Positions 2,397-38,916 of a DNA stretch of 39,201 bases are shown here, in pieces. The stretch comes from a virus. Position numbers and translations under genes: made by a program. Positions within the stretch are counted from its first letter, which is position 1, and the number at the start of each line of letters is the position of its first letter. The notes below the pieces were generated by a model, which saw nothing but the letters and a program-made list of their open reading frames with translations, was not told the origin of the DNA and did not search any database. The DNA is taken from the UHGV virus genome UHGV-0121072. One strand, given 5' to 3'.

Positions 2397-2787
2397 ACAC
2401 CACCAGTTCTACTACCACTAGATTCAGGTGCTGGGTGAATCTTTGTGCGTCCGTGGTGTGCATCTGGAGACGCTTATGATTGAAGACGTGTGAGTTGCTA
2501 ATCTTCACGTAAACTTCGTCAGGCTTGCCGTGGACGATGAACGTCTGATCCACGGCAATCTTGTCGATTGTCAGGCGCTTACTGGTGATGGAAACTTCAG
2601 GAACCGCAGTCACAGGGTGGACTTCAGGTTTCACTTCCTCAAAGCGCCAGCGGAACATACCGTTGATGAATTCGTGGTTCTCTTCGGTAGCAACAAAGGT
2701 CTCACCAATTGGCGCGCAGTACTTGCTTAGCATTTCCGCAACGGAACGGTTCCAAAACGTATTTAGAACACGATAAGTCTTACTCAT
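2383..2787 (-). CDS. Hypothetical 134-aa protein with no T7 counterpart
   Basis: ATG at 2787 overlaps gp3 stop (ATGA) with AAGGAG SD 8 nt upstream; the track's upstream M is a GTG. No motif recognised. Confidence 0.5.
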   Translation of the reverse strand: MSKTYRVLNTFWNRSVAEMLSKYCAPIGETFVATEENHEFINGMFRWRFEEVKPEVHPVTAVPEVSITSKRLTIDKIAVDQTFIVHGKPDEVYVKISNSHVFNHKRLQMHTTDAQRFTQHLNLVVVELVVYDGE

Positions 2788-3239
2788 CACTTAACTCCTT
2801 TCTTCTTTGGAATGAGTATACCTGAAGGCATACGTACAGTCGCCTCTCGAAGCCACTCAACCGGGATGAATTTATCGGCAAACTTAAAGCCGTTCTTTTC
2901 GCACCATGCGCCATACGTGGTCGGAGACCCTTTGTATAACTTGGAGCGTGAACTTGAGAACACGAACCGAATGTCTAACTCTGGGTGCTGTTCTTTAATC
3001 AATAAGTGCTTCTTACGGTCTTCCACTGCGAAGATTCCCTTGGTCTCCACAATGATGCCATTTGGTAGCACAAAGTCTGGACAATAGGTATGAAGGGATT
3101 GAGGGATTGTGTACGCTATTTTATACATCTCGTACTCAGCCTTAACCCCGTTCTTCTCCAGCCACTCTTGGTTTTTTGCTTCCAGTCCAGACCGATAGAT
3201 TCCTACCGAGTGTCCTCTACTCATGCTACGTGTCGCCAT
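2787..3239 (-). CDS. gp3: Endonuclease I (Holliday junction resolvase)
   Basis: 150 aa; YCPDFVLPNGIIVETKG, DRKKHLLIKEQHPELDIRFVFSSS, KFADKFIP match T7 gp3. Confidence 0.85.
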   Translation of the reverse strand: MATRSMSRGHSVGIYRSGLEAKNQEWLEKNGVKAEYEMYKIAYTIPQSLHTYCPDFVLPNGIIVETKGIFAVEDRKKHLLIKEQHPELDIRFVFSSSRSKLYKGSPTTYGAWCEKNGFKFADKFIPVEWLREATVRMPSGILIPKKKGVK

Positions 3240-3670
3240 GTTTCTCTCCTTAGTATCTTACCTATTGTTGGCTGAGACACTCCGTAGATTGTGGCGAGTT
3301 GTCGCTGAGTAAGGATCGAAGACCTAATTTCCTTGACTTTAGTGTCAGTAAGTTTTGACATACCGCACTTCTCTCCCGGAACATGAGGAGGGTTTACACC
3401 GCGCCCCTTGTTACGCATGTCCTGAAGGTTATCCAATTGGGTCCCTACAGTAAGATGCTCAGGGTTACAACACAGCGGAGTATCACAGGTGTGTAACAGA
3501 ACGCCATTAGGTTCTTCACCTGTAATAAGCTCGTAGGCTACGCGATGTGCAAGCATGGTTTTTCCATTGTACCTAATCTGACCGTAGCCTTTGTTGTTAA
3601 CGCAGCCAGTGAAAAGCCAGCAGCTACCTGAAACCACAAGTCTCTGCTTAAGGCTTTCTACTGTAGCCAT
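3221..3670 (-). CDS. HNH homing-endonuclease-like protein
   Basis: 149 aa; HNH-like HTCDTPLCCNPEHLT and C-terminal IYGVSQPTIGKILRRETWRH as in T7 small HNH proteins; sits between SSB and endonuclease I. Confidence 0.8.
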   Translation of the reverse strand: MATVESLKQRLVVSGSCWLFTGCVNNKGYGQIRYNGKTMLAHRVAYELITGEEPNGVLLHTCDTPLCCNPEHLTVGTQLDNLQDMRNKGRGVNPPHVPGEKCGMSKLTDTKVKEIRSSILTQRQLATIYGVSQPTIGKILRRETWRHVA

Positions 3671-7336: not shown

Positions 7337-10018
7337 TTAAGCGAATGCATAGTCTGAAGACAAGACGTCTTCGATATTCAGTTTACCTTTCTTCGGAAGC
7401 TCTGGCAGCTTGTCGCGCTGGCTCTCATGAAGCTGGTATTCAAACTGCTCATAGAAGTCAAGCAGCACATCGTTGTCGCGGTAGGTCTCGACCATCGTCT
7501 CACGGACGCCACGGAACAGATACTCAGCGTCAGCCGGGATGGTACCGAAGCTATCGTGAATCACTGCGAATGACATCACGCCATACTTGCGGTGAGTGTG
7601 GACTACAGTCTTGCGTAGGTGGCTACCATCTTGTGAGTGGACGAAGTTCGGGCTAATGCCTGACTCCTGCTTGTGCTTGTCCAGCTCTTTCTTCATACCT
7701 TTATTGACTGTAGGCTGAAGGTTGAATGACCCTAAGAACATCAGGTTCAGACGAGTGGTATCCTTCTTGCGGTATTCCTGCCAGACCGGGAACCCATCAG
7801 GTGTGACCCAGTGTACCGGAAGGCAAGGCTTCAGTATTTCTCCAGTCTTCTTGTCCTTCACTTCAGCAGCCAGCAGCTTGGCAGCACCTTGAAGCCACTT
7901 CATCACGTCAACCGCAGCAACTACGGTCCCGCTCACAGCTTCCCAAATCATCTTAGCCATGAAGCGAGACGCTTGGCTTGGCTCGGTGAACATAGCTCCA
8001 GACCCTGAGTCAATCGCTGGCATCACGATGTCATCGTATACTTGGTCTGCGAATCCGTACTCTTTCGACCCGTAGGCCAGAGTCATGACTGAACGCTTAG
8101 GGACCTTACGTGACATACCGTAGGTCAGCCACTGACGGGCCAGCTCTCGTGTCCCCAGCTTGAGACGCTCGGTAATCTCACCAGTTTTCTTGTCCTCGTG
8201 AGTCACAACCTCGTTATCTGTACCGTTAACCAGCAGGACTTTAAGCTCCTCCTCAATGCGATCAGACACGATGCGGTAGATGTCTTGGACCTTACCGGAT
8301 GGCGTCAGGTTCACTGCATGTCCACCAATGTGGTCACGAAGCATCGCGCTGAAGTGCTGAATCCCAGAGCAGGACCCATCGAACGCTATCGGCAGCGAGC
8401 AGGAGTAAGACAAGCCGTGGTGCATTACGCCAGCATACTCGAAGCAGAACGCAAGGAAGCAGAACGGAGAGTCTAACTTGCCCCACCACTCAATGCTATC
8501 CATCGGTGCCTTAGCAGCAGCCATGATGTTGTCGTGGTTATCTTCCACCCACTTGATGCGCTCCTCGAAGGTGACTTTATCGACACCCGCACAGTTTGCA
8601 CCGTGGACCTTCAGCCATTTGAAACCATCAGCACCAATAGGCTTACCGACTGCCAGAGTAAGGAGACCCTTCTGCATGTCGTTACCCTGAGGGTTGAACA
8701 TCGGTACAGCGTAGACTCGACCGCGCCAGTCCATGTTGTATGGGAACCAGATGGCCTTGAACTGAGAGAACTTGTTCGCTTGGTTAACGATAAAGCTCAG
8801 TGACAATCTGCGTGACTGCCGGGCCTTCTCTCGGCGGTAGATACCGGCAGCAGCTTTCTTCCATGCCTTGAGTTCCTCTTCAGTCTCACCCACATAGTCT
8901 TCAGGCTTCAGTGGCTCCATCTGAGGGATGTCGTCAATAGGCGTGTTGTTCAACTTCTCGACCATGTTCACCACGTCCAGAACCTTCTTGTTCACTTTCC
9001 AAGGTGTATTCTGGATGATGTTGACAGCGTCATAGACTTCAGGCATGTACACGTCTTCGTAACGTGCCACCGCAGACTTAGACCCTAAGCGAATCAATGG
9101 TAACGGTCTGCGACCTTTGGCCCAGTACCCGCCGCCTACGACACCCGTCCACGGCTTAGGTGGAACGACGCAAGGCTGATAGACTGGTGCGATACCCGCA
9201 AGGCTGAATCCACGTTGTGCCATCTTCTTGACCCAGAAGTCTGACAGGTGGACCATCTCAACATCAGCCGCTGCATTGCCAGCACCATAACGCTTAAGCT
9301 CGACCAGTTGTGTGGACTGGATGACAATCTCAAGCATCTTGATGCCAACATGGACCGCCTCGGTCGGACTCCAAGTTCCCCACGCATCTTCCAGTTGACC
9401 CTGCTCCAGCATGGAGGCCTCAACCGCTTGCATGTAGGCTTTCTTGTAGGATGCCCCAGCTCGCTTGTTCAGGTTCTCAGCTATCGCCTTCTTGAAGTGC
9501 TCCTTCTCCTTGTCACGGATGCGACCGAAGCGGATTTCGTCCTCAAGTGTGCGACCTATCGCTGAGGCCATCGGTGTAATCGGTATCCCTTCAGGCTTGA
9601 CCAGCTTGGAGAGGATGACCTTCAGTATAATAACTGCAGCAGACTCGCAAGAGATACGCAGAGAGCGGTCCTTGACGGCCTTCTCTTCAGTGCTCAACAT
9701 GGTGAACGCTACGCTAGGACGAGAGGTTGACAGCTTCCCGTCTGGACCTTCATGCCACTCCCGAACGGCTTGCGCAATCTTAGGGACCAGAGTCTGCATC
9801 AAAGGCTTGGCGACCTGATTGTCTGCCAGTTCCCCGCGCTCTGTCTGGCGCTCAAGGTTCTTGATGAAACGTCGCTCGCCTTCAGTGTATGCCTCATGCT
9901 CAAGCTGAAGCTGCTTGACTGCAAGGTCTTGCCCGTAGTGGTCAGCCAGCAGGTTAAACGGCTCAATGGCGTTCGACACATCAGAGAAGTCGTGTTTGTC
10001 AATAGAGATGACGCTCAT
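7337..10018 (-). CDS. gp1: Single-subunit DNA-dependent RNA polymerase
   Basis: 893 aa; aligns along its length with T7 RNAP (FPYNMDWRGRVYA, DGSCSGIQHFSAMLRD, RSVMTLAYGSKE, HDSFGT, C-terminal ...FAFA). Confidence 0.97.
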   Translation of the reverse strand: MSVISIDKHDFSDVSNAIEPFNLLADHYGQDLAVKQLQLEHEAYTEGERRFIKNLERQTERGELADNQVAKPLMQTLVPKIAQAVREWHEGPDGKLSTSRPSVAFTMLSTEEKAVKDRSLRISCESAAVIILKVILSKLVKPEGIPITPMASAIGRTLEDEIRFGRIRDKEKEHFKKAIAENLNKRAGASYKKAYMQAVEASMLEQGQLEDAWGTWSPTEAVHVGIKMLEIVIQSTQLVELKRYGAGNAAADVEMVHLSDFWVKKMAQRGFSLAGIAPVYQPCVVPPKPWTGVVGGGYWAKGRRPLPLIRLGSKSAVARYEDVYMPEVYDAVNIIQNTPWKVNKKVLDVVNMVEKLNNTPIDDIPQMEPLKPEDYVGETEEELKAWKKAAAGIYRREKARQSRRLSLSFIVNQANKFSQFKAIWFPYNMDWRGRVYAVPMFNPQGNDMQKGLLTLAVGKPIGADGFKWLKVHGANCAGVDKVTFEERIKWVEDNHDNIMAAAKAPMDSIEWWGKLDSPFCFLAFCFEYAGVMHHGLSYSCSLPIAFDGSCSGIQHFSAMLRDHIGGHAVNLTPSGKVQDIYRIVSDRIEEELKVLLVNGTDNEVVTHEDKKTGEITERLKLGTRELARQWLTYGMSRKVPKRSVMTLAYGSKEYGFADQVYDDIVMPAIDSGSGAMFTEPSQASRFMAKMIWEAVSGTVVAAVDVMKWLQGAAKLLAAEVKDKKTGEILKPCLPVHWVTPDGFPVWQEYRKKDTTRLNLMFLGSFNLQPTVNKGMKKELDKHKQESGISPNFVHSQDGSHLRKTVVHTHRKYGVMSFAVIHDSFGTIPADAEYLFRGVRETMVETYRDNDVLLDFYEQFEYQLHESQRDKLPELPKKGKLNIEDVLSSDYAFA

Positions 10019-10798: not shown

Positions 10799-11146
10799 CT
10801 ACACTTCCACCTCGATGGTTGTCATCTTGGTCACAGTAAGACCACCAGCAAGCTCAACCGCATAGCGTATCGCCTCCTCTTTGGACTTGAAGTCCTTTCC
10901 CGCAAGGTGGTATATGTCCCCTGTTATTACCTTAGATGGCCTGCGACTTACCGCAATAGCGTTTTCCATGGTAAGCTCACCACGGCTATACTGAGTAAAC
11001 CAGCGCTTCACCGAACTCGTCCCCACCCCGAACTTTTTGGCGGTTTCCGTCACCCTATCTATAACTCCCTCAGGCAGGGAGGTGTAGTAGTTAACAACGT
11101 TGAGTTTAAATGCTACCGAGAATACATTGCGAGTTTTAGCAGTCAT
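10799..11146 (-). CDS. Early protein with IS3/IS911 OrfA-type helix-turn-helix (HTH_Tnp_1-like), 115 aa
   Basis: N-terminus VFSVAFKLNVVNYYTSLPEGVIDRVTETAKKFGVGTSSVKRWFTQYSRG follows the IS3-family OrfA HTH pattern; no transposase catalytic domain follows. Confidence 0.55.
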   Translation of the reverse strand: MTAKTRNVFSVAFKLNVVNYYTSLPEGVIDRVTETAKKFGVGTSSVKRWFTQYSRGELTMENAIAVSRRPSKVITGDIYHLAGKDFKSKEEAIRYAVELAGGLTVTKMTTIEVEV

Positions 11147-11845: not shown

Positions 11846-11876
11846 AGTTATATCCTCTCAGTTGTTAGTGACCATC

Positions 11877-11913
11877 AGTCAGGGCCTTCAGATGTAGACT
11901 CAAAGACCCTGTA
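11877..11913 (-). promoter_or_regulatory. Stem-loop upstream of ocr, candidate RNase III site
   Basis: Minus-sense CAGGGUCUU...AAGGCCCUG 9-bp stem; T7 has an RNase III site before gene 0.3. Confidence 0.4.
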
Positions 11914-12027
11914 GTTAGTCGCTATCGGCGCACATTAAGAGTTTATCCAGATTGTTAAAGAGCATTCCCTTCAGTCAGATGACTTCAGGTAGACCATTTC
12001 AGTGTTGGTCGTCACCGTTGTTTCGAT

Positions 12028-12064
12028 GTGGTACAGCTTACATCTTATCGTTACTGCTTGTCAA
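12028..12064 (-). promoter_or_regulatory. Host sigma70-type early promoter (T7 A2/A3-like)
   Basis: TTGACA, 18 bp, TAAGCT, then GTACCACATCGAAAC, closely resembling the T7 A3 region. Confidence 0.45.
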
Positions 12065-12169
12065 CTACTTTCTGTCATCTGCCTGTTGTTCGTATGACTT
12101 ATCAGGTTGTCTACTTAACCGGGATGACCCGGCGTCTTCACTATCCGGTTGTTGCCGTGTCGTGTTGAC

Positions 12170-12205
12170 GGAAGCTATTAAGCCATAGTCTAGACCTATA
12201 GTCAA
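12170..12205 (-). promoter_or_regulatory. Host sigma70-type early promoter (T7 A1-like)
   Basis: AT-rich upstream tract, TTGACT, 17 bp, CTTAAT; downstream ...CCGGTTAAGTAGACAACCTGATAAGTC resembles the T7 A1 leader. Confidence 0.4.
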
Positions 12206-12950
12206 TAGGAAATCTTAAATAATATTGATTAAGCTATCGTCGGCCCCATGGCGTAAGAGGATAGTCTTTGACTAACATGTATTAGACCTTAAGTCTATAG
12301 CTTTGTGTCTATTAGACTGTAGGTCTTTGACTGTAGGTAATGGCTTTACCGATGGTCGGTGACTGTAGGTTGTAGGACTGTAGGTTGTTGAGACCTATGG
12401 TTATACAGATAGGGACTCAGAGACAGACCAATAGTCCCTACCTATCGTCCTGACCTCCAGCCATAGCCTCTACCTATCGTTGACCAATAGTCCCACCTAT
12501 CGTTGACCAATAGTCCCACCTATCGTTGACCAATAGTCCCACCATCTGTCCAACCCTTATGATAGACTGGAGGTAGGGGCCACCCTTTGTCTGGACTGAA
12601 AGAGGGCCTATGGGGAGACTTGAGGTTCTTGAACTGTGAGATGTGGTCTCAAACTTTTGGTATAAAACTCATCGAAGACTGTAGGTGGCAGCTACTGTAG
12701 GTCAAGGACCGTAGGTCAGGCGACACTAGGATAGACCAATAAGTAGGATGACCCTAAGTGAGATTCTATTAAGGTGTTACCTAAAGTCCTTGACTACAGT
12801 ATCTAAGGTCAGTAGAGTAGCGTCAGCTATGAACTGACCTTAGGTCTTCAATGCGCGTATTCCCACTCCGTCTGATAATCTTCATCAGAGAACGACCCAT
12901 AAGACTCCTCGTCCATCCCTACCTCCTTTCGTTGATTGTTACCATGATTG
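12206..12950. repeat. Non-coding genome-terminus region with dispersed decamer repeats (plus-strand gactgtaggt and variants, at least 7 copies)
   Basis: No credible ORF; repeated decamers at 12315, 12329, 12361, 12377, 12677, 12693, 12707; position (between gene 19.5-like ORF and early promoters) equals the T7 terminal repeat/concatemer junction. Confidence 0.6.
12425..12551. repeat. Tandem repeat array, 23-bp unit acctatcgttgaccaatagtccc: 3 perfect copies (12472..12540) plus degenerate flanking copies
   Basis: Seen directly; contiguous identical units without spacers. Confidence 0.85.
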
Positions 12951-12952
12951 CG

Positions 12953-13111
12953 TTAATTACACTGAGACACCAGAGAACATACGAGAGTCTCGACCCACCC
13001 GACCCACTGACTTCCAGCAGTAACGCCAGCAGCAAGTAGAACAGCAGTAAGAAACCTATATGTAGCTCGATTGGTCGCCAGAGCTTTAAGTACAGCTTTG
13101 GTCTTTGCCAT
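12953..13111 (-). CDS. Candidate 52-aa membrane protein (gene 19.5 position)
   Basis: ATG at 13111 with AGGAGG SD; hydrophobic FLTAVLLAAGVTAGSQWVGWV; downstream of the terminal promoter as in T7. Confidence 0.3.
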   Translation of the reverse strand: MAKTKAVLKALATNRATYRFLTAVLLAAGVTAGSQWVGWVETLVCSLVSQCN

Positions 13112-13291
13112 ATGCTACATACCTCCTGTATCTATGGTCTGTGACTATCTGTATTGGAGGGATTATGATTAATATCACCCTCCTTCCATCGGTGCAAGCC
13201 TTAGGTAAGAACTCGGAGTCTGCCTCCTAAGGTCTTGCATAAAGTCTGCATATGTATATTCACTACAGTAATACTATAAGTAACCGGGGGT

Positions 13292-13313
13292 CTTCCCTAT
13301 AGTGATAGTTAAG
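13292..13313 (-). promoter_or_regulatory. Phage RNAP promoter (CTTAACTATCACTATAGGGA) after the terminase gene (phiOR-like)
   Basis: Consensus copy near the genome right end. Confidence 0.7.
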
Positions 13314-13408
13314 TCCAAACTCCTTGTAAAACAGTAGGTTAGACTGGTAGTAACTATAGGTTACTAACCGCGTATTAATGCAGCTTTCACCAATAGTTAT
13401 TCATTCAT

Positions 13409-15172
13409 CTAGTGGAACGTAACGTAGGACCCTAGTCCCAGCTCGTCGTCCGTATCGTGAGTTACCCGGACCCCATTGTCCCAGAACTCAGTGTGGATGG
13501 ACTCGAAGCCTTTCCGTGGGTTCTCCATCTGTTCCTCCAGCCACTCCTCAGTGACTTCACGTTCGCCTTTGTTGGCATCCTTAGCCATCGACTCAACGAA
13601 GAACTGTACACCGATAGCCAGCGCATCAAGTCGGTCATCGTGTGCCAAGGCTCCACGTTCACGAGAGATACGGGTCATCTGGTAGAAGAGAGAGTAGATA
13701 GGGTTACGAACACCATCCTTGTCAGAGGCTGTCTGGTAGTCTTGGACGATAGCAGCAGCGTTAACGATAAGTCGGTGAGACCCCATGATAGGCTCCAGAA
13801 CGTCACAGATGCGGAGTTCTTTCTGACCCTTACTCTTCACTTCAGTTACAGCAGCAGGATGGATACGGGCCGCTACAGGCTTGAATAGCTCAAGGTACAT
13901 ACCATCACCGAAGTTACCCTCAATGACGTATTCGTTGACCTTCCACTTATGACCAATCTTAGCCAGAGCTTCCAGAGTAGAGTCTTCGTATCCACCACGC
14001 ATACCACCAACCTCCATAGCGAAGATGTAGCCGTTGAGCTGGTACAATACCGCATAACCAGTTTCATCCTTACCACGACCACTAGGGTCAATGACCAGAA
14101 TCTTCTGGGTGTATGAGCTGAACGCAGAACCTACAGTCTGATACGTGTGGTACGAGTCACCAATGAGTCCAACGTTAGGAACGTCCTCACGCTTGTTCTG
14201 ATGGTTCGGCAACCATTGGTAGACCATTGGGCTAGACGCTGGGTCTAAGTCCGCTACGATAAGGTCACGGAGCTTCAGAGGGTATTTCTCGGCATCACTC
14301 AGGTTCGGGTTAAGCATGAACTGTAGAGCGAAGCCAGCTTTACCGTAGGACAGCTCACGTTCCTTCAGGTCAGTATCGTCGAATCGAACTTCATCGGTCG
14401 GACGCCAGTAGAAGGCCTCAGGGTCCTCTTCAAGCTCTGCCTGAAGCATAGGAGCCAGACGGTCTCCGTAAGACTGCCAGTCCTTCCTGTCGCGTGGATA
14501 ACGAGCAGGCCAGATAGTAGTGGTGTATCCACGGCCTTCTAGCTCACGATACAAGGTCATCTCGTTCTGAGGAGTACCCAGATAGATGATTGTACCTCCC
14601 GGCTTCAGGATAGCGTCGAACTCTTTCACAAGCTCTGACAGGCGGTCTCTTGCAGCCTGAGTCGCTGAGTTGTTCGGAACCTCAACGTCATCGGCAATCA
14701 GGATGTCAGCACGACTACCAGTCAACTGACCAGTGATACCAACTGACTTAACAGAAGGTGAGTGGTCAGGCTTGGCTGGCCCAACGTCGAAGCTAATAAC
14801 CGCATCTCGCTGTCCCTGCTTAGGTTTGAGTTCCTGAAGCTGAGGCATGAGGTCGATGATTCGCTTGATGAATATGGAGTTAGCATCAGCTCGTTCCTTT
14901 GAGGCAGACACAATCATGAACTTCAAGTCTGGGTTGTTCCATAGTTTCCAGACCACGAATGCACACGTAATGAAGGACTTCCCGATACCACGGAACGCCT
15001 GTAAGATGAAACGCCTGTTGTCCCCAGCCGATAGTTTCTTCGCCATGTCAATCTGACAGCGAGTCGGGACTGGGAGTGACAGAGCTTTCCATAGAACAAA
15101 CAGGAAGAACACGAAGTCTGCCTTCATACGGGCAGTCATTAGCGCCTGACGCGCCACTAAGTCTTTACTCAA
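13409..15172 (-). CDS. gp19: Terminase large subunit (TTG start)
   Basis: 587 aa; [73 protein letters not shown] match T7 gp19. Start codon at 15172..15170 is TTG with AAGGAGG SD 7 nt upstream. Confidence 0.93.
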
Positions 15173-16448: not shown

Positions 16449-18782
16449 TTATGCACTATTAGCGGGTCTGTCTAAGTACCATCCATAGTTTGTTTTAGTC
16501 AATTGTATAAGCTCCCCGTTTGTTTTGTATTGAGTAACACCAGACGCCGTATTGTACATTATCCTCTCATTAACATTAACGCCACCTCCTTGTTTGACAA
16601 GGGTAACTACTGTACGTGACGAGAGTGGGAGTATACGTATTGTTTTGCCTACATACCCACCAGTTATTTTAGTGATCGCCGAGCCAGAGGCCCCCGAATC
16701 GAGATACAATAAATCCACCGCATCGGCATCAATGGTAGAAACAACTGAGTTTACGGTAGAAGTTGTTGCAGCGTTTTCCCTTACGAAAGACGAGCCATTC
16801 CAGCGGTACATCAACCCATCCGACAGACCAATAACCTTCTCATTAACCCCAATATCAGGCGCGTAAGTTTTAGATGTATCCACTATTTTAAAAGTACCGC
16901 AAAACGGAACGGGGATAATATTCGAGCCAGTTAAACGGTTAACTGTATATAGGGAGTTATTGACAGTCCATTGCCTACCATTCCATACACTCATGAAAGC
17001 CCCTGACGACAAAAGAACCGTAGAACTATAGCCGGTTTCAACATGCGCAGATTCAGACAATAACCCTTTATCTTGTGGGTTACTGAAATCGTCAGTGCAA
17101 TCAAATAGTCTTAAGTTAGCGCGCCCCTCGAATTTTCCTGTAGAACCAACAGGGGCCACAACGAAAAGATAATCCTTATCAAAACCATAATCAGGGCCAA
17201 CGCGTAAGAACGACGCCATACAGTTAGTGGTAGGGAACTGCCCTTTTACAACCCACTTTCCACTAGAATCTTGCATTAATAGCTTTTGAATGGCTATTGT
17301 GTACGACTTAGTAGTGGTATCCGCAGCACGCTCAATAGCGAAAGGCGTTCCGTCATAAAAATTTCCGAAACCAATTTCACCACCAGATGTGCCTATAGTA
17401 TCGGTATCTGTGTCTTTCCTGACATCTTCACCATAAATATAATTGCCGTCTTCGTCAGTAGTTATATACCCTTCTACAATACCTGAAGAAATAGTAGTAA
17501 GGTAGTAATAGGGTATCGCAGGCCTGCCATTAATGTATCCTACTTGCGTTGGTGCGATAGATGAGAAATACGCACCTGCAGGCTTAACGGCGGATGTAAT
17601 ATCAACTGGCGCACTCCATGTCTCCCCCCGATCTTTAGATACGCAATATTCAATAGTGGATGTGTTGTCCGGGTTTGTGCCTTGTTGTGCGTGACCCCAC
17701 CCCGTAATCCCCTTCATTGATGTAAAGAAACAATACAAATAGCCATCAAGATTATTCAGGAATAGTACCGTTTCAGATGTGGCATACCCTGGACCTTTGT
17801 TAACAACAGTTCCAGTTGTCCAGTTCACACCGTTATCATCAGATATTAGGTAATCGATGTGCATAGGTGTACCGTCCTGTCCTGGGTCAATATTGGCACC
17901 ATCCTTCACTGTGTAGATGCATACCACCCTACCACCTGGAAGTGATACCGCTTTTGGTGCAAAGTTAAATACATTCTCTACATAAGTTTGCAACTGTAAG
18001 CTCAAATTATTGTTAAAGCTTCTTGAGTGTTTATTCCCAAAAGTGAAATTAAATCTATTTTTTGCAAATGATAGCCTTTTGTAAAGCTCAAAATCTTTAT
18101 CCTTGACCGCTCCGTTAACTAAATCAACTCCGTCATCACCAGCTAGGTCACTTCTTAAACTTGCATCGCCAACACTAACCCATGCGTCAGATGATTTAGG
18201 AGTTGAACCAGCAGGAACGTTCTTTGGAAGAGTACCGTCCCAGCGGTAATACTCACCATCCTCTTCCCATAGCAGGACCTCGTTCCATTTTGTAACGTTG
18301 AAGCCTTTCTCGAAGGAGCGGCGGGTAATATAGCCAAATAGACCAGCTTCCTTTATACTAGCAGCGATTCGGCGTGCTTCATCCTCGCTATCCTTAGCGT
18401 TGCCAGCAGAGCTACCAGCAGCCTCGGCATACTCCTTCGCCAAGTCAACCGTTTGGTCTCGACCTTCTTCTGCAATATGGATAGCCTGAAGCTCTGCATT
18501 GGTCAGGTCAATAGCTGTTAAGACTGAGCCATTCCTGAAGTCTACCACTAAGTCAGTTCCAGTCTGACGGTGAATACGAACGATGTCAAAACCTGATTGG
18601 TCAACCAACATCTCAATCATCGTTGGGTTAAGGAATCGGTAATCTCGACCAACTTCCAGTACACGGTTCAGGGTAGGGTTAGAGCTATTCACCAGCGTAA
18701 CAACAACAAACGTTCTGGCTAGGTAGTCGAACTCGATCCTGTACCGAGTGCTTCCTGAAGGGAATTGTGTAATCGTTGACAT
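16449..18782 (-). CDS. gp17: Tail fiber/tailspike: T7 gp17-like N-terminal anchor domain fused to a sialidase-like (Asp-box) C-terminal domain
   Basis: 777 aa; first ~150 aa resemble the T7 gp17 N-terminus (FDYLARTFVVVTL, LVDFRNGSVLTAIDL); C-terminal part has two Asp-box motifs SDDNGVNW and SKDRGETW. Confidence 0.88.
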   Translation of the reverse strand: MSTITQFPSGSTRYRIEFDYLARTFVVVTLVNSSNPTLNRVLEVGRDYRFLNPTMIEMLVDQSGFDIVRIHRQTGTDLVVDFRNGSVLTAIDLTNAELQAIHIAEEGRDQTVDLAKEYAEAAGSSAGNAKDSEDEARRIAASIKEAGLFGYITRRSFEKGFNVTKWNEVLLWEEDGEYYRWDGTLPKNVPAGSTPKSSDAWVSVGDASLRSDLAGDDGVDLVNGAVKDKDFELYKRLSFAKNRFNFTFGNKHSRSFNNNLSLQLQTYVENVFNFAPKAVSLPGGRVVCIYTVKDGANIDPGQDGTPMHIDYLISDDNGVNWTTGTVVNKGPGYATSETVLFLNNLDGYLYCFFTSMKGITGWGHAQQGTNPDNTSTIEYCVSKDRGETWSAPVDITSAVKPAGAYFSSIAPTQVGYINGRPAIPYYYLTTISSGIVEGYITTDEDGNYIYGEDVRKDTDTDTIGTSGGEIGFGNFYDGTPFAIERAADTTTKSYTIAIQKLLMQDSSGKWVVKGQFPTTNCMASFLRVGPDYGFDKDYLFVVAPVGSTGKFEGRANLRLFDCTDDFSNPQDKGLLSESAHVETGYSSTVLLSSGAFMSVWNGRQWTVNNSLYTVNRLTGSNIIPVPFCGTFKIVDTSKTYAPDIGVNEKVIGLSDGLMYRWNGSSFVRENAATTSTVNSVVSTIDADAVDLLYLDSGASGSAITKITGGYVGKTIRILPLSSRTVVTLVKQGGGVNVNERIMYNTASGVTQYKTNGELIQLTKTNYGWYLDRPANSA

Positions 18783-25032: not shown

Positions 25033-25623
25033 TTAGCTATGACCTGTAGGTGTACCTTTAGCAGCACTAATTGGTGCAGCACCACCACCAGAGCGGGACG
25101 CTCCAGAGATTGACTTACCAGCGGCGTAGCCTTGCATCCCGGCGGTAGCAACATTAAGTGCATGAGCCAGTGGGTTGGTCTTAATGATTTTACCTTGACC
25201 ACGGATAGCAGACTTGGTGTTCTCAATGTTGGCGATACGGTTCCCGAAGATAGCCGCATAATCGCGGTTGTAACTTTCGGTAATCCCTGCTCGCTCCTTG
25301 ACTGTATCTCCTTCGACCTGACGTTCAATCCTGTCCATAGAGTTACCTTCTAGACCGGACTCAGCCACCGCAGCTCGGACCATGCCCTGATTGCGGATAC
25401 CGTTGAGCGTGATCTCTGTCAGTTCAGCCATCTGCTGCTCCTTCAGGCCTCGCTCCTGCATCCTCAGGTTGGCGTCAGAGTAGTTCATCTGCTTAACCAT
25501 TTCCTGAGCCTGTCGGTTCTGAGCGTCAATTGCTGCACCTTCTGCCTTGGCCTGTTGGGATGCGGACATAGTGGCACCAGCTACAGACATGACTCCTAGA
25601 CCGATGGATACTGGTTCACACAT
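25033..25623 (-). CDS. gp14: Internal virion protein B
   Basis: 196 aa (same as T7); N-terminal MC...; EGNSMDRIER resembles T7 EGSSMDRIKR. Confidence 0.85.
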   Translation of the reverse strand: MCEPVSIGLGVMSVAGATMSASQQAKAEGAAIDAQNRQAQEMVKQMNYSDANLRMQERGLKEQQMAELTEITLNGIRNQGMVRAAVAESGLEGNSMDRIERQVEGDTVKERAGITESYNRDYAAIFGNRIANIENTKSAIRGQGKIIKTNPLAHALNVATAGMQGYAAGKSISGASRSGGGAAPISAAKGTPTGHS

Positions 25624-26078
25624 ACGTCCTCCTTAGAGATAGTGAATAATTGAAAACGCTCACCAGTTACTGGGCTGATAGTCCAATCATCATGGAACTT
25701 AGCCCCAAGCAACTTCAAGAATTTAATGTGAGACTTATTGCCTGACCACACGTAGTTCCAGATGGTCCCGTATTGGTCTAACATTAAGTCCCTGTACTCA
25801 GAGATGCAGCGAATGAACTCTCGCTTCTCTTTAGGTCTCAGCTTATAGACCAGACCGGAAGTCAAGAACCATACGTTATCCCCTTGGTTTCCACCATAGG
25901 CAAACACTTCGCCTACACCGTTCGTTAAAACCACAGATGACGGGGATAAATGCTTAAGCAGTCTTTCAGATAGACCCACGGTTGACCCGTAGTTTGCTTT
26001 GCACTCATTAACATCATCTGCTGAAAGATGCCACAGAAAGTAGTGGACATCTGGTTCCGTAGCCTTGCGAATATACAT
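25596..26078 (-). CDS. Hypothetical 160-aa protein in the gp13 (internal virion protein A) position
   Basis: ATG with AAGGAG SD directly downstream of a promoter; assignment by synteny only. Confidence 0.45.
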   Translation of the reverse strand: MYIRKATEPDVHYFLWHLSADDVNECKANYGSTVGLSERLLKHLSPSSVVLTNGVGEVFAYGGNQGDNVWFLTSGLVYKLRPKEKREFIRCISEYRDLMLDQYGTIWNYVWSGNKSHIKFLKLLGAKFHDDWTISPVTGERFQLFTISKEDVCVNQYPSV

Positions 26079-26097: not shown

Positions 26098-26147
26098 AAG
26101 GGCCTATAGTCCCTATAGTGATAGTTAAGGTAAATCTATAGGCCCTT
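26098..26147. repeat. Perfect 12-bp inverted repeat (AAGGGCCTATAG ... CTATAGGCCCTT) enclosing the phi13-like promoter
   Basis: Arms at 26098..26109 and 26136..26147 are exact reverse complements; the loop contains the promoter core. Confidence 0.8.
26108..26129 (-). promoter_or_regulatory. Phage RNAP promoter (CTTAACTATCACTATAGGGA) upstream of the gp13-position gene
   Basis: Consensus copy; position equals T7 phi13. Confidence 0.7.
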
Positions 26148-26154
26148 CAATAAG

Positions 26155-28512
26155 TTAGACGGAACGAGCTTTCTTAGCGTATGACGCCTCCCAGCCACAC
26201 CCAACGATTGACACTGGGGTAGGGTAGTCGGACTCTAAGGTTAGACTCGTGGTTAATGCGTTACCATTCATAGCGAAGCGATACTGTCCATCCCCAATGC
26301 TGGTAGTCCCAATTGTCTGCTGACCAAGGGTGTACCCGTTGAAGGTGTTCACGAACTCACGCTCACCGTTTCTGACAATTAGTCTCAGAGCGCCAGTGTC
26401 CTTGTAGTTTACCCAAGCCCTGCGAAGCTGTAGACGCCCAGTGTCTTCAGACTGAGTACCACTATCGTCTTCAATCTTAATAAGGAACCGTGAGAACTTG
26501 TAGGACATCAGATAAGACCTTCCGATGAACACTGTACGTCCTGACCAATCGCCGTTGAGTACAGCCACAGTTGAGATGTCAGTCAATTCACCAAGGTCCA
26601 CGTAGGCACCCTGACTGTCAATAAGATAGTACCGACCGGGAGACGGAGCGTTTCCACCATAAGCAGAACCAATGTCAACCGTAGTCTTATAGGTGTCAGA
26701 GTTGTATGAGTCAATTGGTATTACCATAGACACCTTGGAGTCAACGTGGAGTCTATACGGCTCTAATGGAAAGTCAGTTGCCTCCTTGATGAACTTAAGG
26801 TGCTCAAGGTCCACGCCGCCTTGGTGCTGACGAACAATGAACATGGTAGAGCCAATCGACGCAGACGCCAGAATCTTATCAGTTTTAGGGAACTCCCAGT
26901 GCGACCAAGAGGCTTGAAGCTGTACGCCGTCCTTAAACAAGAACTTGTAGATGTAGATTCGGTTGTATGCACCTGTAGAGTTTACGCAGATGTAGTTCTC
27001 AGTCCCGGTACCTTGAATATCGAACACCCCGTTAGGGATGTAGGACAGTACGTGACCAGTTGTATCATCGGCATCCTTCACATCAGACACATCAGCTACA
27101 GCGAAGTATCGCTTAATGCTGGTGAATGACCCACGAGGCGCTGAGAAGAAGACTGAGCGTCCTACAGCGAACGGTCTGGCATTGTCACCTAGGGCAAACT
27201 CTGAGCCTACATCAAGCTGGATAGACTTCGAGGTAAGTACCCCAGAGCTTGTCATCACGAACTGCACCTCGTCAGACCAAAGTAGTAGCTGCTCGCTAAA
27301 CGGAACGGCATACTTAAGGATTGAGATTCGAGGGTGACTTACAGCTACGTCAATAGGGTCATCATCACTCAGTGTCGCCACACTCTTAGGGAAGAACGCA
27401 AAGTAGCTGGCTGAACGGCTCATGATTACGTTCTCACCTGACAAGAACCCAAGCCTGTTCCTGTAGAAGAACACATCGTTAATCGTAGCATCCACGAAGC
27501 TAGGCATAGGGTTTGTGTCATCATTACCAGCACCACGCTTAGACCAGTCCAGAGTCTTGAACTCAAAGGAGCCATCAGATTGTCGTACCAGAGCGTGTGG
27601 CATTGTGGTGTTATCGAACCCAGTGACAACTCCCGGCTCCACTGTCTCCTTCCACGTCTTAGTGTTGGAGTCATATATCACGTAGTATTCATCGGCGCTA
27701 CTGTTTGTCTCGCCTTGAATCTTAATGATATACCCATTAGGAGCGGCAAGAGGTAGTTTAGAGATTGTCTGCACAGTGTCTAGGACTGGGCTTATTAGCT
27801 GGTTAGCGTAGCCGTCCTCCGTCTCCACTGAGTTAATATCGGTCCCTGAAGGAGCTGTGATTAGCAGGAATCCAGACCCAAGGTCAAACGTGAAGGTAGG
27901 ATAGGCAGCAACAAGAAGGTCTCTCAGAGCTGCTCCAATGGCTTGAGCGTCCACCTTAGGTGGGTCATTCTTGGCATCATTACCTGCTGGCAACTTATGC
28001 GAAACCTTAACGCCTCCGTTGATTCCTACCTTAAGGGTGCGACCATACTGTCCCCCACGAAGGTTGATTAAAGCATGAGCTTTACGATTATAACCAGAGT
28101 GTGACTTCTCGCTTCCACCTTTAACGACAACCTTACGGTTAACGACGAACGTATAGTCTGCCACGGTAACGACACGGATGTCATCTCGGGGGTTGGAGGA
28201 CTTAACGTAGTCTACCGCACCTGACACTGAGTATTGATTGCCACTCAAGTCAACTACCTGAATGTTGGACCCATTGAACACGATGTAATACTGCTCATGC
28301 TCGTCACGGTTAATCAGATGGAACTTAGGGTTGCTCCCAACGTCGATGTTAAGACGTCTCTTGAAGACTGTAGGTGGGCGCTTCTGGAGGCCATCACTCT
28401 CGGATGACCAGCAGTTAACCTGTTCCTCGCCTTGGTCTGAGAACCTCAGTATATCAGGCTGCTGGCTAATGCCACCTTTAAGATTTTTTATGCTTTGTGT
28501 GATAAGCGGCAT
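26155..28512 (-). CDS. gp12: Tail tubular protein B
   Basis: 785 aa; QSIKNLKGGISQQPDILRF, FYRNRLGFLSGENVI, DDDPIDVAVS, RLQLRRAWVNY, IVGCGWE match T7 gp12. Confidence 0.93.
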   Translation of the reverse strand: MPLITQSIKNLKGGISQQPDILRFSDQGEEQVNCWSSESDGLQKRPPTVFKRRLNIDVGSNPKFHLINRDEHEQYYIVFNGSNIQVVDLSGNQYSVSGAVDYVKSSNPRDDIRVVTVADYTFVVNRKVVVKGGSEKSHSGYNRKAHALINLRGGQYGRTLKVGINGGVKVSHKLPAGNDAKNDPPKVDAQAIGAALRDLLVAAYPTFTFDLGSGFLLITAPSGTDINSVETEDGYANQLISPVLDTVQTISKLPLAAPNGYIIKIQGETNSSADEYYVIYDSNTKTWKETVEPGVVTGFDNTTMPHALVRQSDGSFEFKTLDWSKRGAGNDDTNPMPSFVDATINDVFFYRNRLGFLSGENVIMSRSASYFAFFPKSVATLSDDDPIDVAVSHPRISILKYAVPFSEQLLLWSDEVQFVMTSSGVLTSKSIQLDVGSEFALGDNARPFAVGRSVFFSAPRGSFTSIKRYFAVADVSDVKDADDTTGHVLSYIPNGVFDIQGTGTENYICVNSTGAYNRIYIYKFLFKDGVQLQASWSHWEFPKTDKILASASIGSTMFIVRQHQGGVDLEHLKFIKEATDFPLEPYRLHVDSKVSMVIPIDSYNSDTYKTTVDIGSAYGGNAPSPGRYYLIDSQGAYVDLGELTDISTVAVLNGDWSGRTVFIGRSYLMSYKFSRFLIKIEDDSGTQSEDTGRLQLRRAWVNYKDTGALRLIVRNGEREFVNTFNGYTLGQQTIGTTSIGDGQYRFAMNGNALTTSLTLESDYPTPVSIVGCGWEASYAKKARSV

Positions 28513-28521
28513 AGGCCCTCC

Positions 28522-28749
28522 TTAAATCATACTCATTAGGACGTATCCGTCAGCGATGTCACCAACGTCAGCAATGTGGACAACCTTACGTGCTACCTGT
28601 TGTCCAGTATACCCGTTGTCCCACTCGTTCAGGATAAGCCAGTCGCCAACCTTAAAGTCCCGGTCGTTAAGTCTCAGCTCTGCTGTCTTTAGACCTAGCT
28701 GTACCGGACCAAAGTGCTGGCGGTGAATCTTCAGGTTGTGACTAGCCAT
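28522..28749 (-). CDS. Small ASCH-like (DUF3850-type) protein, 75 aa, inserted between tail tubular genes
   Basis: ATG overlaps gp11 stop (TAATG) with GGAGG SD; pattern LKIHRQHFGPVQLGLKTAELRLNDRDFKVGDWLIL...YTG...GYVLMS recalls DUF3850 proteins (from memory). Confidence 0.5.
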   Translation of the reverse strand: MASHNLKIHRQHFGPVQLGLKTAELRLNDRDFKVGDWLILNEWDNGYTGQQVARKVVHIADVGDIADGYVLMSMI

Positions 28750-29315
28750 TAGTCCCTCCCGATGTCAGACATCATGTTGTAGCGACCAGTGTCCATCTCG
28801 TACTCCATAACCTGCTGATAGAGTTCTGCTTCCTGCTCACGAAGGTATAGCTCTGACTCTTGGCTACCGAAGAACTTAGCGTTGAACTCACGGCTGGCCT
28901 TGGTAACGATGTAGTCCCTGAATACCACTGGCATCTCAGAGAATGGTTTCATCTCAACAAGCTCCACCGTTATAGGGTCGGTGAAAGTGGTTGACTGAGT
29001 GGACAGGTCGTACAGGTATCCACCCATGTTGCTGTAGTAGCTGGTGGCCCCGGCAGTCATTACACGAAGGTATGACGGTAGGAATCGAATCCTATTGTCT
29101 TGGACATCAGGTGTCAGGACAGCAGCTTCGTTGATATTAAAGTTCCAGCCTTTAGCTTGGACCTGACGATTGACACGATGCAGTATACGTTGAGCGTTCG
29201 AGACGTCAGCGTTCCCCTCGTCAAGCTGTAGGACTGCTGGTTCACCGATAGCAGCTAACATATCGTTGATGGCATCTAAGTCATCGTTAGCATTCAGTGG
29301 AATGTAGTGAGCCAT
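28749..29315 (-). CDS. gp11: Tail tubular protein A
   Basis: 188 aa from ATG at 29315 (AGGAGG SD); INDMLAAIGEP, RILHRVNRQVQAKGWNFNI, IVTKASREFN resemble T7 gp11. The track's upstream ATG (29345) lacks an SD. Confidence 0.85.
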   Translation of the reverse strand: MAHYIPLNANDDLDAINDMLAAIGEPAVLQLDEGNADVSNAQRILHRVNRQVQAKGWNFNINEAAVLTPDVQDNRIRFLPSYLRVMTAGATSYYSNMGGYLYDLSTQSTTFTDPITVELVEMKPFSEMPVVFRDYIVTKASREFNAKFFGSQESELYLREQEAELYQQVMEYEMDTGRYNMMSDIGRD

Positions 29316-29437: not shown

Positions 29438-29478
29438 AAAAAAAAACCCTCAAGCACCCGAAGGCACCCAAGGGTTTT
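29438..29478 (-). terminator. Tphi-like transcription terminator after gene 10
   Basis: Minus-sense RNA ACCCUUGGGUGCC-UUCG-GGUGCUUGAGGGU (13-bp stem with G.U pairs, UUCG loop) followed by a run of 9 U; same position and style as T7 Tphi. Confidence 0.75.
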
Positions 29479-30777: not shown

Positions 30778-30799
30778 TCTCCCTATAGTGATAGTTTAG
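30778..30799 (-). promoter_or_regulatory. Phage RNAP promoter, best consensus copy (CTAAACTATCACTATAGGGAGACC), upstream of the capsid gene
   Basis: Position equals T7 phi10; carries the GGGAGA initiation sequence. Confidence 0.8.
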
Positions 30800-30801
30800 T
30801 C

Positions 30802-36524: not shown

Positions 36525-36685
36525 TAGCCTTCTCCTTCTTCTTCGTTATGCTCTTTCAGAATTTCATGAATGTCTCGACTGCATGAACCACTGAGGTTTG
36601 GATTATAACCAGACTCCTCGTGTCCACACCACCAAGCTGACCGCATCAGGTCTTTGACCTCCTGCTCGCTATAAGTTTTAGCCAT
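36524..36685 (-). CDS. Candidate 53-aa protein directly after the DNA polymerase gene
   Basis: ATG overlaps the DNAP stop (TAATG) and its TAA overlaps the next ATG; MAKTYSEQEVKDLMRSAWWCGHEESGYNPNLSGSCSRDIHEILKEHNEEEGEG; below the track cutoff. Confidence 0.4.
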   Translation of the reverse strand: MAKTYSEQEVKDLMRSAWWCGHEESGYNPNLSGSCSRDIHEILKEHNEEEGEG

Positions 36686-38856
36686 TAGTGACACTCCTTC
36701 CACGTTGGTCCAATCTTACCTTCGGTATCAAGGACACATTTAAAGTTATAGAACTCACCCACCTTACGCATAGCAAGTTGAGCAATCTTGACGACTTCTT
36801 CGGCAATCTCCTGAGTACGACACGCAATCTGCAATTCGTCATGCACCCAAGCCATGTACGCAAAGTCGCCTTCCCAGCCGTGAACATACCCTGCCTCTTC
36901 GAGCATACGTTCAGTCTCCACAATCCAGTGCTTACAGACTACCGCACCATCACCTTGAAGTAATGCGTTCAGTGCTGAGTGTGGCGACCGGATGTGGATA
37001 CGGCGACCATCAAGTCCACGCAACCAACGGCGTTTCCACTTGACGATGTTCTCTCCGTCCACCCACTTAGAGTCTGAGATTAACGTACTACTAACAGCTT
37101 CCCTGAGGTCTTTGATGGCTGGTGTACCCTCAATGAATTTCTTCATGAGAGCTGAACCTTCCTTCTTACCGCCTCCGACTATCAGTCCAATCTTAGCGGC
37201 CCCTGCACCATACAGGAACGCATAGATGAACGTCTTGGCGTTGTTACGGAAAGCCTCATGATCGTGGTTCGATTTATCGCGTGGGACGTTAGGTGCTAAC
37301 CCAGCGTTTACTGCGTTGGCCCAGTGGATGTCACCTTCTACCACAGTCTTCGCATAGTCACCACCATCAAACGGAGCCGCTCGGTTCCCCAGACAACGAA
37401 GCTCAAGACCTGAGGCATCCACGCCTACTTGAATCCAAGGGTCTGGCTTACCGTCCTTCTTGTTCCACGCTGCACCGAAAGCACCACGGCAAGTCTCACC
37501 ATATGGGGCACCATTAGCCGGGACCTGAGCCATGTTTGGTGAACTATGGGTCGCACGTCCGGTTACTGCCCCGCATGGGTTGATTGAACCGTGCATACGT
37601 CCGTCTGGACCTACAAGTTTCAACCATGCGTTCTTACCTTCAGCCGCCTGACCGATGCGCTTCTGGACTACCAGATACTCACGGACCAGCTCTACGCAAG
37701 CCTGAGCCTCTGCGTCTGGCAACTTAACGTGTTCTAACGTCTCGTCATCGACTACAGGTTTACCAGTGTCAGTGAAGTCAACAGGCTCCCAGCCACGCTC
37801 CATCAGGACTTTCGCTAAGTGGTCTCCGCTTCCCGGATTAAACTCAACGTAAGTGATTGGCGTGAATGGTGCTCCTTCCATCGTGTCTCGCGTATCGAGT
37901 TCACAAGGTTCAAGACCTAAGCGTTGAGCTTTGTTCTTCGGCTTCTTAAAGATGCCACCGACCTTGGGATACACGACTCTCGGATACTTCGGGAGGTCCT
38001 TACCTGTCCGTGGATGCCTGAAGAACTCCTTGCCTCCCTTCGGTGCATACCAGCTACCGAAAGTCGAACGCAGCTTGTCCAGCAACTCCGCACGTTTGAC
38101 GGTGAGTTCACGATATAAGCCTTCGACCATCTCGGTGTTCATCGGATAGCCGTTACGCTCCATCTTCGCACAGGTCCACGCAGCATCATGTTCCAGACGC
38201 AACGCATAAATCTGTTCGAAAGCGAACTGTCCAGACTGGAAGTAATACTTGTCAGTCAGGAACTTCTTGAACAATGCCAGTGTGACCACAACGTCTTGAA
38301 CGTTATAGTCCAGCATCTCCTGAGACGGGAACAACCATTCGTCCCCAGACTTATATTCGATACCTTCGGCCTTGCACTTGGCAACGTAATCGTGTTTGTA
38401 TTCACCCTTCATCTCACCTAGACGATAGCCCCAAGCCTCAAGAGACTGGCGTCCCATCATCTTAGGTGGAAGACGACCAGATTTCACCGCGCCCATGTCT
38501 GAGAACTTAATGTTTGGATACATCAAGCGGCCCAGCACCAAGGTATCAATCATCTTGTGTTTCGGGAAGTTAAAACGTTTCCCAAAGTACAGACGTTTCA
38601 GCTTGTCAATAGCCGGGACGTCATAGTTGATACCGTTGTGAAATACCAGCATACCATCAGGCGATGCGGCAATCTCTTCCACTTTATGAACATACTCTTT
38701 GAAGCCACCGACGATACCGACCATCGGCGCTACCCCATACTTAAGGGTCTCATTCGACTCGGCATTAATCAGGACCCCACAATGGAACTGGGACACGGTG
38801 TCAAGGAGACCGTTTGTCTCGATGTCCGAACCCCAAATATCCTTAAGGTCAAACAT
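36685..38856 (-). CDS. gp5: DNA polymerase (family A, with 3'-5' exonuclease domain)
   Basis: 723 aa from ATG at 38856 (GGGGGA SD); DIETNGLL, FHNGINYDVPAI, QDVVVT, SGSGDHLAK-region, RAAPFDGGDYA, YMAWVHDE match T7 gp5. The track's longer ORF starts at an upstream GTG. Confidence 0.96.
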   Translation of the reverse strand: MFDLKDIWGSDIETNGLLDTVSQFHCGVLINAESNETLKYGVAPMVGIVGGFKEYVHKVEEIAASPDGMLVFHNGINYDVPAIDKLKRLYFGKRFNFPKHKMIDTLVLGRLMYPNIKFSDMGAVKSGRLPPKMMGRQSLEAWGYRLGEMKGEYKHDYVAKCKAEGIEYKSGDEWLFPSQEMLDYNVQDVVVTLALFKKFLTDKYYFQSGQFAFEQIYALRLEHDAAWTCAKMERNGYPMNTEMVEGLYRELTVKRAELLDKLRSTFGSWYAPKGGKEFFRHPRTGKDLPKYPRVVYPKVGGIFKKPKNKAQRLGLEPCELDTRDTMEGAPFTPITYVEFNPGSGDHLAKVLMERGWEPVDFTDTGKPVVDDETLEHVKLPDAEAQACVELVREYLVVQKRIGQAAEGKNAWLKLVGPDGRMHGSINPCGAVTGRATHSSPNMAQVPANGAPYGETCRGAFGAAWNKKDGKPDPWIQVGVDASGLELRCLGNRAAPFDGGDYAKTVVEGDIHWANAVNAGLAPNVPRDKSNHDHEAFRNNAKTFIYAFLYGAGAAKIGLIVGGGKKEGSALMKKFIEGTPAIKDLREAVSSTLISDSKWVDGENIVKWKRRWLRGLDGRRIHIRSPHSALNALLQGDGAVVCKHWIVETERMLEEAGYVHGWEGDFAYMAWVHDELQIACRTQEIAEEVVKIAQLAMRKVGEFYNFKCVLDTEGKIGPTWKECH

Positions 38857-38877
38857 GGTTAATCCCCCGTTTAATCT

Positions 38878-38916
38878 AATCATAAAGGCCACTCGCTGTG
38901 AATGACCTTGAGTCTA
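38878..38916 (-). promoter_or_regulatory. Conserved stem-loop, candidate RNase III site (upstream of gene 5)
   Basis: aatcataaaggccac tcgctgtga atgaccttgagtcta, third near-identical copy of the family. Confidence 0.5.

Follow-up and report, generated by a model that had tools for sequence, protein, structure and literature searches.

Between the two tail tubular protein genes of the virus genome UHGV-0121072 lies a small gene of the DUF3850 family. It is a genuine gene, beyond what chance would give, and its protein is under purifying selection. We give about even odds to the reading that its product is a non-structural accessory protein, soluble and made late, with a modified base or nucleotide as its ligand and possible substrate for hydrolysis. 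About 150 deposited phages carry this gene at the corresponding position, so gene, family and location are already known at the level of annotation. Because all three stand in RefSeq and GenBank for many Kayfunavirus genomes, the finding by itself changes nothing. DUF3850 is a very large and largely phage-borne family with an invariant polar putative pocket.

A small gene between the tail tubular protein genes

The window, meaning the whole stretch of 39,201 nucleotides that was analysed, looks like a complete Kayfunavirus-type (K1F/EcoDS1-like) genome of a T7 relative, circularly permuted and in reverse orientation. Its landmarks are the genes for DNA polymerase (36685-38883), RNA polymerase (7337-10018) and terminase (13409-15139), and the probable site of its physical ends and early promoters is an ORF-poor stretch at about 11850-13400, between the terminase and the early genes. 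The features on which the analysis turns are the following.

28522-28749, minus strand: DUF3850/ASCH-fold gene (75 amino acids, 8.5 kDa, pI 6.4, ATG start), equivalent to CR44b gene 11.05 and EcoDS1 AS9_0040
28754-28760, minus strand: Shine-Dalgarno sequence GGGAGGG of the DUF3850 gene, read from the sequence, within the last codons of gene 11
28749-28751 (gp11 stop TAA) and 28747-28749 (DUF3850 ATG), minus strand: upstream overlap TAATG, read from the sequence
28510-28524, minus strand: downstream junction, with TAA at 28522-28524, GGAGGG at 28516-28521 and the gp12 ATG at 28510-28512
28749-29315, minus strand: gene 11, tail tubular protein A or adaptor (188 amino acids; Pfam Tube, E 1.7e-46)
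26155-28512, minus strand: gene 12, tail tubular protein B or nozzle (785 amino acids; Pfam Phage_nozzle, 1095 bits)
30778-30800, minus strand: phage RNA-polymerase promoter upstream of gene 10, ACTAAACTATCACTATAGGGAGA, identical to the EcoDS1 'phi' promoter just upstream of gene 10A
29443-29478, minus strand: terminator after gene 10, corresponding to T7 Tphi and EcoDS1 'phiTE', located by its match to the annotated EcoDS1 terminator
26108-26130, minus strand: phage promoter phi13, downstream of gene 12 at the end of the unit, identical to EcoDS1 phi13

An earlier note on this DNA had described a 75-amino-acid ORF between the tail tubular genes, overlapping the upstream gene through TAATG and preceded by its own GGAGG Shine-Dalgarno sequence. 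Its coordinates and ATG start are exact, the flanking genes belong to the Pfam families Tube and Phage_nozzle, the gp11 stop codon shares one base with the start codon, and the ribosome-binding sequence reads GGGAGGG; the note named no strand, which is minus. The start of gene 11 at 29315 was picked by homology (the mechanical ORF reaches 29345), and the resulting gp11 is 98% identical to that of EcoDS1. The upstream junction is preserved in 13 of 13 related loci, as GGGAGGGACTAATG in 11 of them and as GGGAGAGACTAATG in the remaining two (L011 and L012). In T7, genes 11 and 12 are indeed adjacent, as the earlier note had said, with a 23-nt spacer and no ORF in it, and in K1F they overlap directly and the DUF3850 gene is absent.

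The ORF is intact in all 14 related copies that were read out and translated, namely the window and 13 further loci. By the Nei-Gojobori method its dN/dS is 0.146 at a dS of 0.185, compared with 0.028 for gp11 and 0.059 for gp12; the gene is thus under purifying selection that is somewhat more relaxed than that on the tail proteins. The copy in Klebsiella phage SAKp10309 is identical at the protein level, and that in EcoDS1 (AS9_0040 / YP_002003774) shares 98.7% identity. Deposited records label the gene variously as hypothetical, DUF3850, RNA-binding protein or activating signal cointegrator.

The earlier note had also raised the possibility that the ORF is simply a divergent N-terminal extension of gp12, and this reading is refuted. 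The cassette that carries the gene is 237 nt long, a multiple of three, so in the window the ORF and gp12 share a frame and are separated only by TAA GGA GGG CCT. The stop codon TAA and the Shine-Dalgarno-bearing spacer before gp12 are kept in 14 of 14 copies, which counts against both an extension and a read-through form. In most phages 236 nt separate the gp11 stop from the gp12 start, and in a GA2A-like locus 238 nt; because the frame relation is not conserved there, a read-through fusion of DUF3850 to gp12 is unlikely. Moreover, K1F, which is without the gene, begins gp12 at the identical methionine.

The promoter at 30778-30800 is the nearest one upstream of the unit formed by gene 11, the DUF3850 gene and gene 12, and nothing promoter-like was seen between the terminator after gene 10 and gene 12. 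From this promoter and terminator map, the DUF3850 gene should be made late, by read-through of the terminator within the gene 11-12 unit, at roughly the level of the tail proteins. Its translation would be coupled to that of gp11 via TAATG, and ribosomes would be passed on to gp12 via TAA-GGAGGG-N3-ATG. The RNA fold of the locus is unremarkable (z -2.1), and a search of Rfam over the whole window found nothing.

Several observations elsewhere in the window are recorded here in their own right. A free-standing HNH_3 endonuclease gene (3221-3670, minus strand, 149 amino acids), probably a homing endonuclease, overlaps the start of the endonuclease I gene (2787-3239). In the tail fibre or spike gene (16449-18782, minus strand), a T7 tail-fibre N-terminal domain is accompanied by a Tail_spike_N domain and by BNR/sialidase-like repeats just under the Pfam cutoffs; its product may have a depolymerase or sialidase-type receptor-binding domain different from that of some relatives. 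In the early region, an ORF of 115 amino acids (10799-11146, minus strand) gives a sub-threshold match to a Brinker-type HTH (22.2 bits versus 23.4).

Presence and absence among relatives

The gene is polymorphic as a precise 237-bp cassette between genes 11 and 12. When K1F is aligned with the window, GGGAGGGACTAATG of K1F runs straight into gp12; in the window, this 14-mer and gp12 are separated by 237 bp whose end is GGAGGGCCTATG. The alignment thus shows that the cassette is bounded by an imperfect direct repeat of a Shine-Dalgarno-plus-start motif, one copy being GGGAGGGACTAATG upstream and the other the downstream junction, and that coupling is preserved whether or not the cassette is present.

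A 601-bp query covering the K1F junction was used to size the locus in relatives. Most of them span 838 bp, an addition of 237 bp, and the span of 601 bp without an insert was found in K1F, 216Ecol046PP, pO2, IME177, ZG49 and ST0223. The more distant MopsHU1, Dev2, SFPH2, GW1 and IME278 match in one piece over the junction, the insert being apparently absent, and the Dev2 record places gp11 and gp12 11 nt apart. The earlier note had proposed that presence or absence in related phages be checked, and both occur: in 155 phage records a tblastn search turns up the protein with at least 80% identity, and K1F, pO2, IME177, ZG49, ST0223 and Dev2, in which gp11 and gp12 are joined directly, show that the gene is dispensable.

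In trees of the flanking sequences (neighbour-joining, no bootstrap), the deepest branches, vB_EclP_26, CR44b and the GA2A-like phage, carry the gene, and the phages without it are nested within the trees in three or four separate positions. The GC content (0.496), GC3 and codon usage of the gene are indistinguishable from those of the neighbouring late genes. The scattering of non-carriers suggests repeated loss, and the deep carriers and matching composition suggest an old resident of the lineage, with the proviso that recombination could mimic multiple losses. The term 'inserted', which the earlier note had used, is misleading here for a gene that appears old and repeatedly lost. A recent foreign insertion was considered separately and is ruled out by the neighbour-like GC, GC3 and codon usage and by the presence of the gene in the deepest branches.

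The junction between genes 11 and 12 is a hot spot for insertions. An extra gene lies between the DUF3850 gene and gp12 in KM02, yong1 and phage B1; it is a Pfam Endonuclease_7 gene in KM02 and is annotated 'endonuclease' in yong1. This extra gene, which the window does not have, encodes about 146-158 amino acids and overlaps the start of gp12 (KM02, L002:2391-2831; yong1, L089:1340-1780; phage B1, ORF41). Elsewhere in the structural region, genes 13 and 14 of EcoDS1 flank an endonuclease VII gene, 13.5 (region L001:6672-8111); the window has no 13.5, and its genes 13 and 14 overlap directly (region 25033-26078). Gene 13.5 is another presence/absence polymorphism, a mobile nuclease in the structural region.

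Such a setting invites the explanation that the DUF3850 gene is a functionless hitch-hiker, cargo or a mobile-cassette remnant kept at the hot spot by linkage. The extra genes of KM02, yong1 and phage B1 speak for it, as do the HNH endonucleases that recur among the neighbours of the family elsewhere and the repeated loss of the gene. We nevertheless give it very little credence. A dN/dS of 0.15 at a dS of 0.19 (rounded), together with 14 of 14 intact ORFs, indicates selection on the protein; across the roughly 18,000 clusters of the family, the polar residues of the pocket are conserved; and no endonuclease adjoins the gene in the window.

The position of the gene between gp11 and gp12, and its coupling to both, would be explained if the product were a component of the virion or of tail assembly, such as a chaperone or a minor decoration of the adaptor-nozzle. 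A tail protein would be expected wherever the same adaptor-nozzle tail is built, and the DUF3850 gene does not follow that pattern: T7, K1F, 216Ecol046PP, pO2, IME177, ZG49, ST0223 and Dev2 assemble the same tail without it. The solved adaptor-nozzle PDB 9VVR (chains S and T) is nearly identical to that of the window (adaptor, E 4e-122; nozzle, 1722 bits), and the best phage matches to it, at 98%, include both carriers and non-carriers of the gene. Although this adaptor-nozzle has been solved, the only DUF3850 chain in the PDB is 3IUW. The GenBank record of CR44b has the remark 'matches in mass spectrometry analysis' on gp10A, gp11 and gp12 and not on 11.05, which is an absence of remark only; the virion mass spectrometry of phage B1, confined to excised bands, missed even gp11 and gp12. 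The family also lies outside structural modules in other phages. We therefore consider a structural role highly improbable, and the product most likely acts as a soluble cytoplasmic protein and not as part of the tail.

A minimal ASCH-type barrel and its neighbours elsewhere

The earlier note had recognised an ASCH/DUF3850-like pattern in the 75-amino-acid protein and proposed a Pfam search, which bears this out with two matches above cutoff. PF12961 (DUF3850) is matched over profile positions 2-76 of 77 (E 1.6e-19; 70.3 bits, cutoff 22.9) and PF04266 (ASCH, of the PUA-like clan) over positions 2-60 of 103 (25.8 bits, cutoff 21.2); PHROG 986 is matched at E 2.7e-35. None of the NCBIfam profiles matched the protein, and the PADLOC models gave only a partial match of 14.6 bits (E 0.006). 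The only solved relative is PDB 3IUW, found by sequence at E 2.8e-10 alone and at E 1.3e-21 with a profile. An AlphaFold2 model built from 24 sequences (pLDDT 96.2) has the same fold as 3IUW, the sole solved DUF3850 member. Profile and predicted fold together show the protein to be a minimal ASCH-superfamily beta-barrel of the DUF3850 family. Canonical ASCH domains run to about 100-110 amino acids with a C-terminal helical part, and this protein stops at residue 75.

The DUF3850 signature, H-x-L-K ... G-x-K-T-x-E-x-R-x-N-D-R ... G-D in a domain of about 75 amino acids, is complete in the window protein, and the ASCH motif GxKxxExR is present as G19-L-K21-T-A-E24-L-R26. At E <=1e-3 the family comprises 17,993 clusters at 50% identity. 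In 149 representatives, no two of them closer than 50% identity, there is no variation at K21, R26 and R30, and H4, L6, K7, G19, E24, N28, D29, G35, D36, L38, L40, E42, G49 and Y69 are conserved in at least 90%. So many conserved polar residues within 75 amino acids suggest a specific pocket or an enzyme.

The earlier note had found such a gene unexpected inside a structural operon, and the genomic context elsewhere agrees. In 52 non-redundant viral loci outside the T7 group, the annotated neighbours of DUF3850 genes are helicases, primases, HNH and endonuclease VII nucleases, Holliday-junction resolvases, origin-nicking proteins, regulators, sigma factors and DNA methyltransferases; a tail protein is an annotated neighbour in only one case. 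Domain fusions are rare: apart from unknown extensions, a census recovered DUF551 four times and a single instance each of LexA_DNA_bind, DUF7415 and a DnaA_C HTH, and it is mostly uninformative as a clue to function. A DNA-associated regulatory role could equally fit the HTH, ParB, DnaA_C and LexA fusions.

The same note had described the family as thought to bind RNA. An RNA-binding protein acting on phage or host RNA might modulate late translation or RNA stability, and PHROG 986 and many GenBank records do use the label 'RNA-binding protein'. RNA association was the original prediction for the ASCH superfamily. The label goes back to a prediction rather than to an assay, and it is left unsupported by a protein that is slightly acidic (pI 6.4, net charge -1.1). 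Neighbours elsewhere are DNA replication and nuclease genes, fusions are to DNA-binding HTH and ParB domains, and YqfB-type ASCH proteins bind no RNA (PMC9599836). We regard RNA binding as unlikely, and the claim of the earlier note comes down to a database label.

Candidate functions and comparison with known systems

Under the preferred reading, that of a soluble accessory protein that handles modified bases or nucleotides, a putative pocket formed by K21, E24 and R26 together with the DUF3850-specific H4, K7, N28, D29 and R30 would take up a nucleobase. Its probable ligand would be a base that is modified or flipped out, or else a modified nucleoside or nucleotide in free form, and by analogy with YqfB and EOLA1, which act on N4-acetylcytidine, a substituent might be removed by hydrolysis. 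The pay-off could be conditional, lying either in sanitation or salvage of the nucleotide pool or in disturbing a host reader of modified bases. A benefit of this kind would explain why the gene is retained under purifying selection in most lineages and lost in several.

A more specific proposal is that the barrel serves counter-defence as a scavenger, sequestering or de-modifying methylated mononucleotides such as m6dAMP or 5-methyl-dCMP released from the host chromosome by gp3 and gp6 and so blunting Metis or PUA-Cal-HAD. According to two recent preprints, both of these E. coli systems sense m6dAMP and protect against T7, PUA-Cal-HAD doing so through a sensor of the PUA/ASCH clan, and the trigger of Metis is m6dAMP from phage-degraded host DNA (10.1101/2025.11.05.686725). 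The window encodes both a Phage_endo_I protein (gp3) and a 5'-3' exonuclease (gp6), and a variable accessory gene under purifying selection is in keeping with such a role. The proposal is pure analogy, however: the available text of the Metis and PUA-Cal-HAD papers ties no phage-encoded inhibitor to ASCH or DUF3850, late expression at tail-protein levels would poorly suit a stoichiometric sponge, and the protein shows no relationship to the PADLOC models. We consider it distinctly unlikely.

Extended to the family, the idea would make DUF3850 proteins phage 'mirror images' of the PUA-family danger sensors of the host, capturing or de-modifying the modified mononucleotides (m6dAMP, 5-methyl-dCMP, ac4C) set free as gp3 and gp6 break down host nucleic acids, and thereby silencing abortive-infection systems of the Metis or PUA-Cal-HAD type or cleaning the precursor pool. 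This is a long shot. If it were true, DUF3850, with its roughly 18,000 clusters, would have its first function, and counter-defence would gain a new class.

The locus is a handy one for the study of DUF3850, since nature supplies clean knock-outs among phages whose flanking tail genes share about 95% identity. The phage is small and engineerable, and recent work on ASCH enzymes and on PUA-family sensors of modified mononucleotides supplies concrete candidate ligands. Our literature search found no paper on a ligand, activity, phenotype or function of any DUF3850 member, no functional work on gene 11.05, and no report that connects 'activating signal cointegrator' with T7-like phages.

Comparison with known systems begins with Kayfunavirus gene 11.05 (Citrobacter phage CR44b, YP_009007176; also EcoDS1 and SAKp10309), which is the same gene in the same place with the same TAATG coupling and no material difference. 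The solved relative 3IUW is a bacterial or prophage protein of Enterococcus faecalis, deposited under the name 'Activating signal cointegrator' with no further description of function. Orf91 of phage P2 belongs to the same family at about 40% identity, and it follows the replication gene A and the origin, by tin and old. ORF45 of the Kagunavirus phages K1ind1 and DS8, siphoviruses of the same enterobacterial hosts, shares about 60% identity and lies among small non-structural genes.

The Kagunavirus genes (DS8/K1ind1; L014-L016 and L083), whose hosts include K1 strains, are the closest homologues outside the T7 group and would be consistent with gene exchange among co-infecting phages. Taking the longest ORF in the IMG/VR loci L014-L016 would lengthen the protein at its C-terminus by about 65 amino acids of unknown fold; despite this possible longer ORF, the K1ind1 record annotates a stand-alone protein of 76 amino acids. 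The same Pfam domain also occurs in ParB-CTPase-DUF3850 fusion proteins of prophages, which are encoded beside parA (10.1101/2025.10.10.680097). There it is carried on a CTP-binding ParB fold, whereas here it is a stand-alone protein of 75 amino acids in a lytic phage.

Two groups of ASCH enzymes offer the closest functional comparison. E. coli YqfB (PDB 1TE7 and 9KYF) is an N4-acetylcytidine amidohydrolase with the catalytic residues K21, T24, R26 and E74 (PMC9599836). Its HMM alignment with the DUF3850 protein is co-linear over residues 9-47 only, pairing K21 with K21 and R26 with R26. Of the YqfB catalytic set only these two residues are present, as the nucleophile T24 is replaced by E24, and the C-terminal 30 or so residues, including the acid E74, have no counterpart; T7 of YqfB is likewise replaced by K7. 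In the clade of TRIP4 and EOLA1, the active motif is K21/E24/R26, and human EOLA1 deacetylates free N4-acetylcytidine, with R26A inactive and murine EOLA1 reported as inactive in vitro (10.64898/2026.08.01.741249). This TRIP4-like clade, human EOLA1 included, has in common with the DUF3850 protein both the K21/E24/R26 motif, in co-linear order, and the stand-alone domain. It differs at position 7, where a Ser or Thr facing the pocket is stated to be universal in the clade and the DUF3850 protein has a Lys that is conserved in at least 90% of its family. Catalysis of the YqfB or EOLA1 type by the DUF3850 protein is uncertain on these grounds, since the C-terminal third with E74 is absent and position 7 is Lys rather than Ser or Thr. 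Having neither Ser/Thr7 nor the C-terminal third of the domain, DUF3850 is a member of neither enzyme clade.
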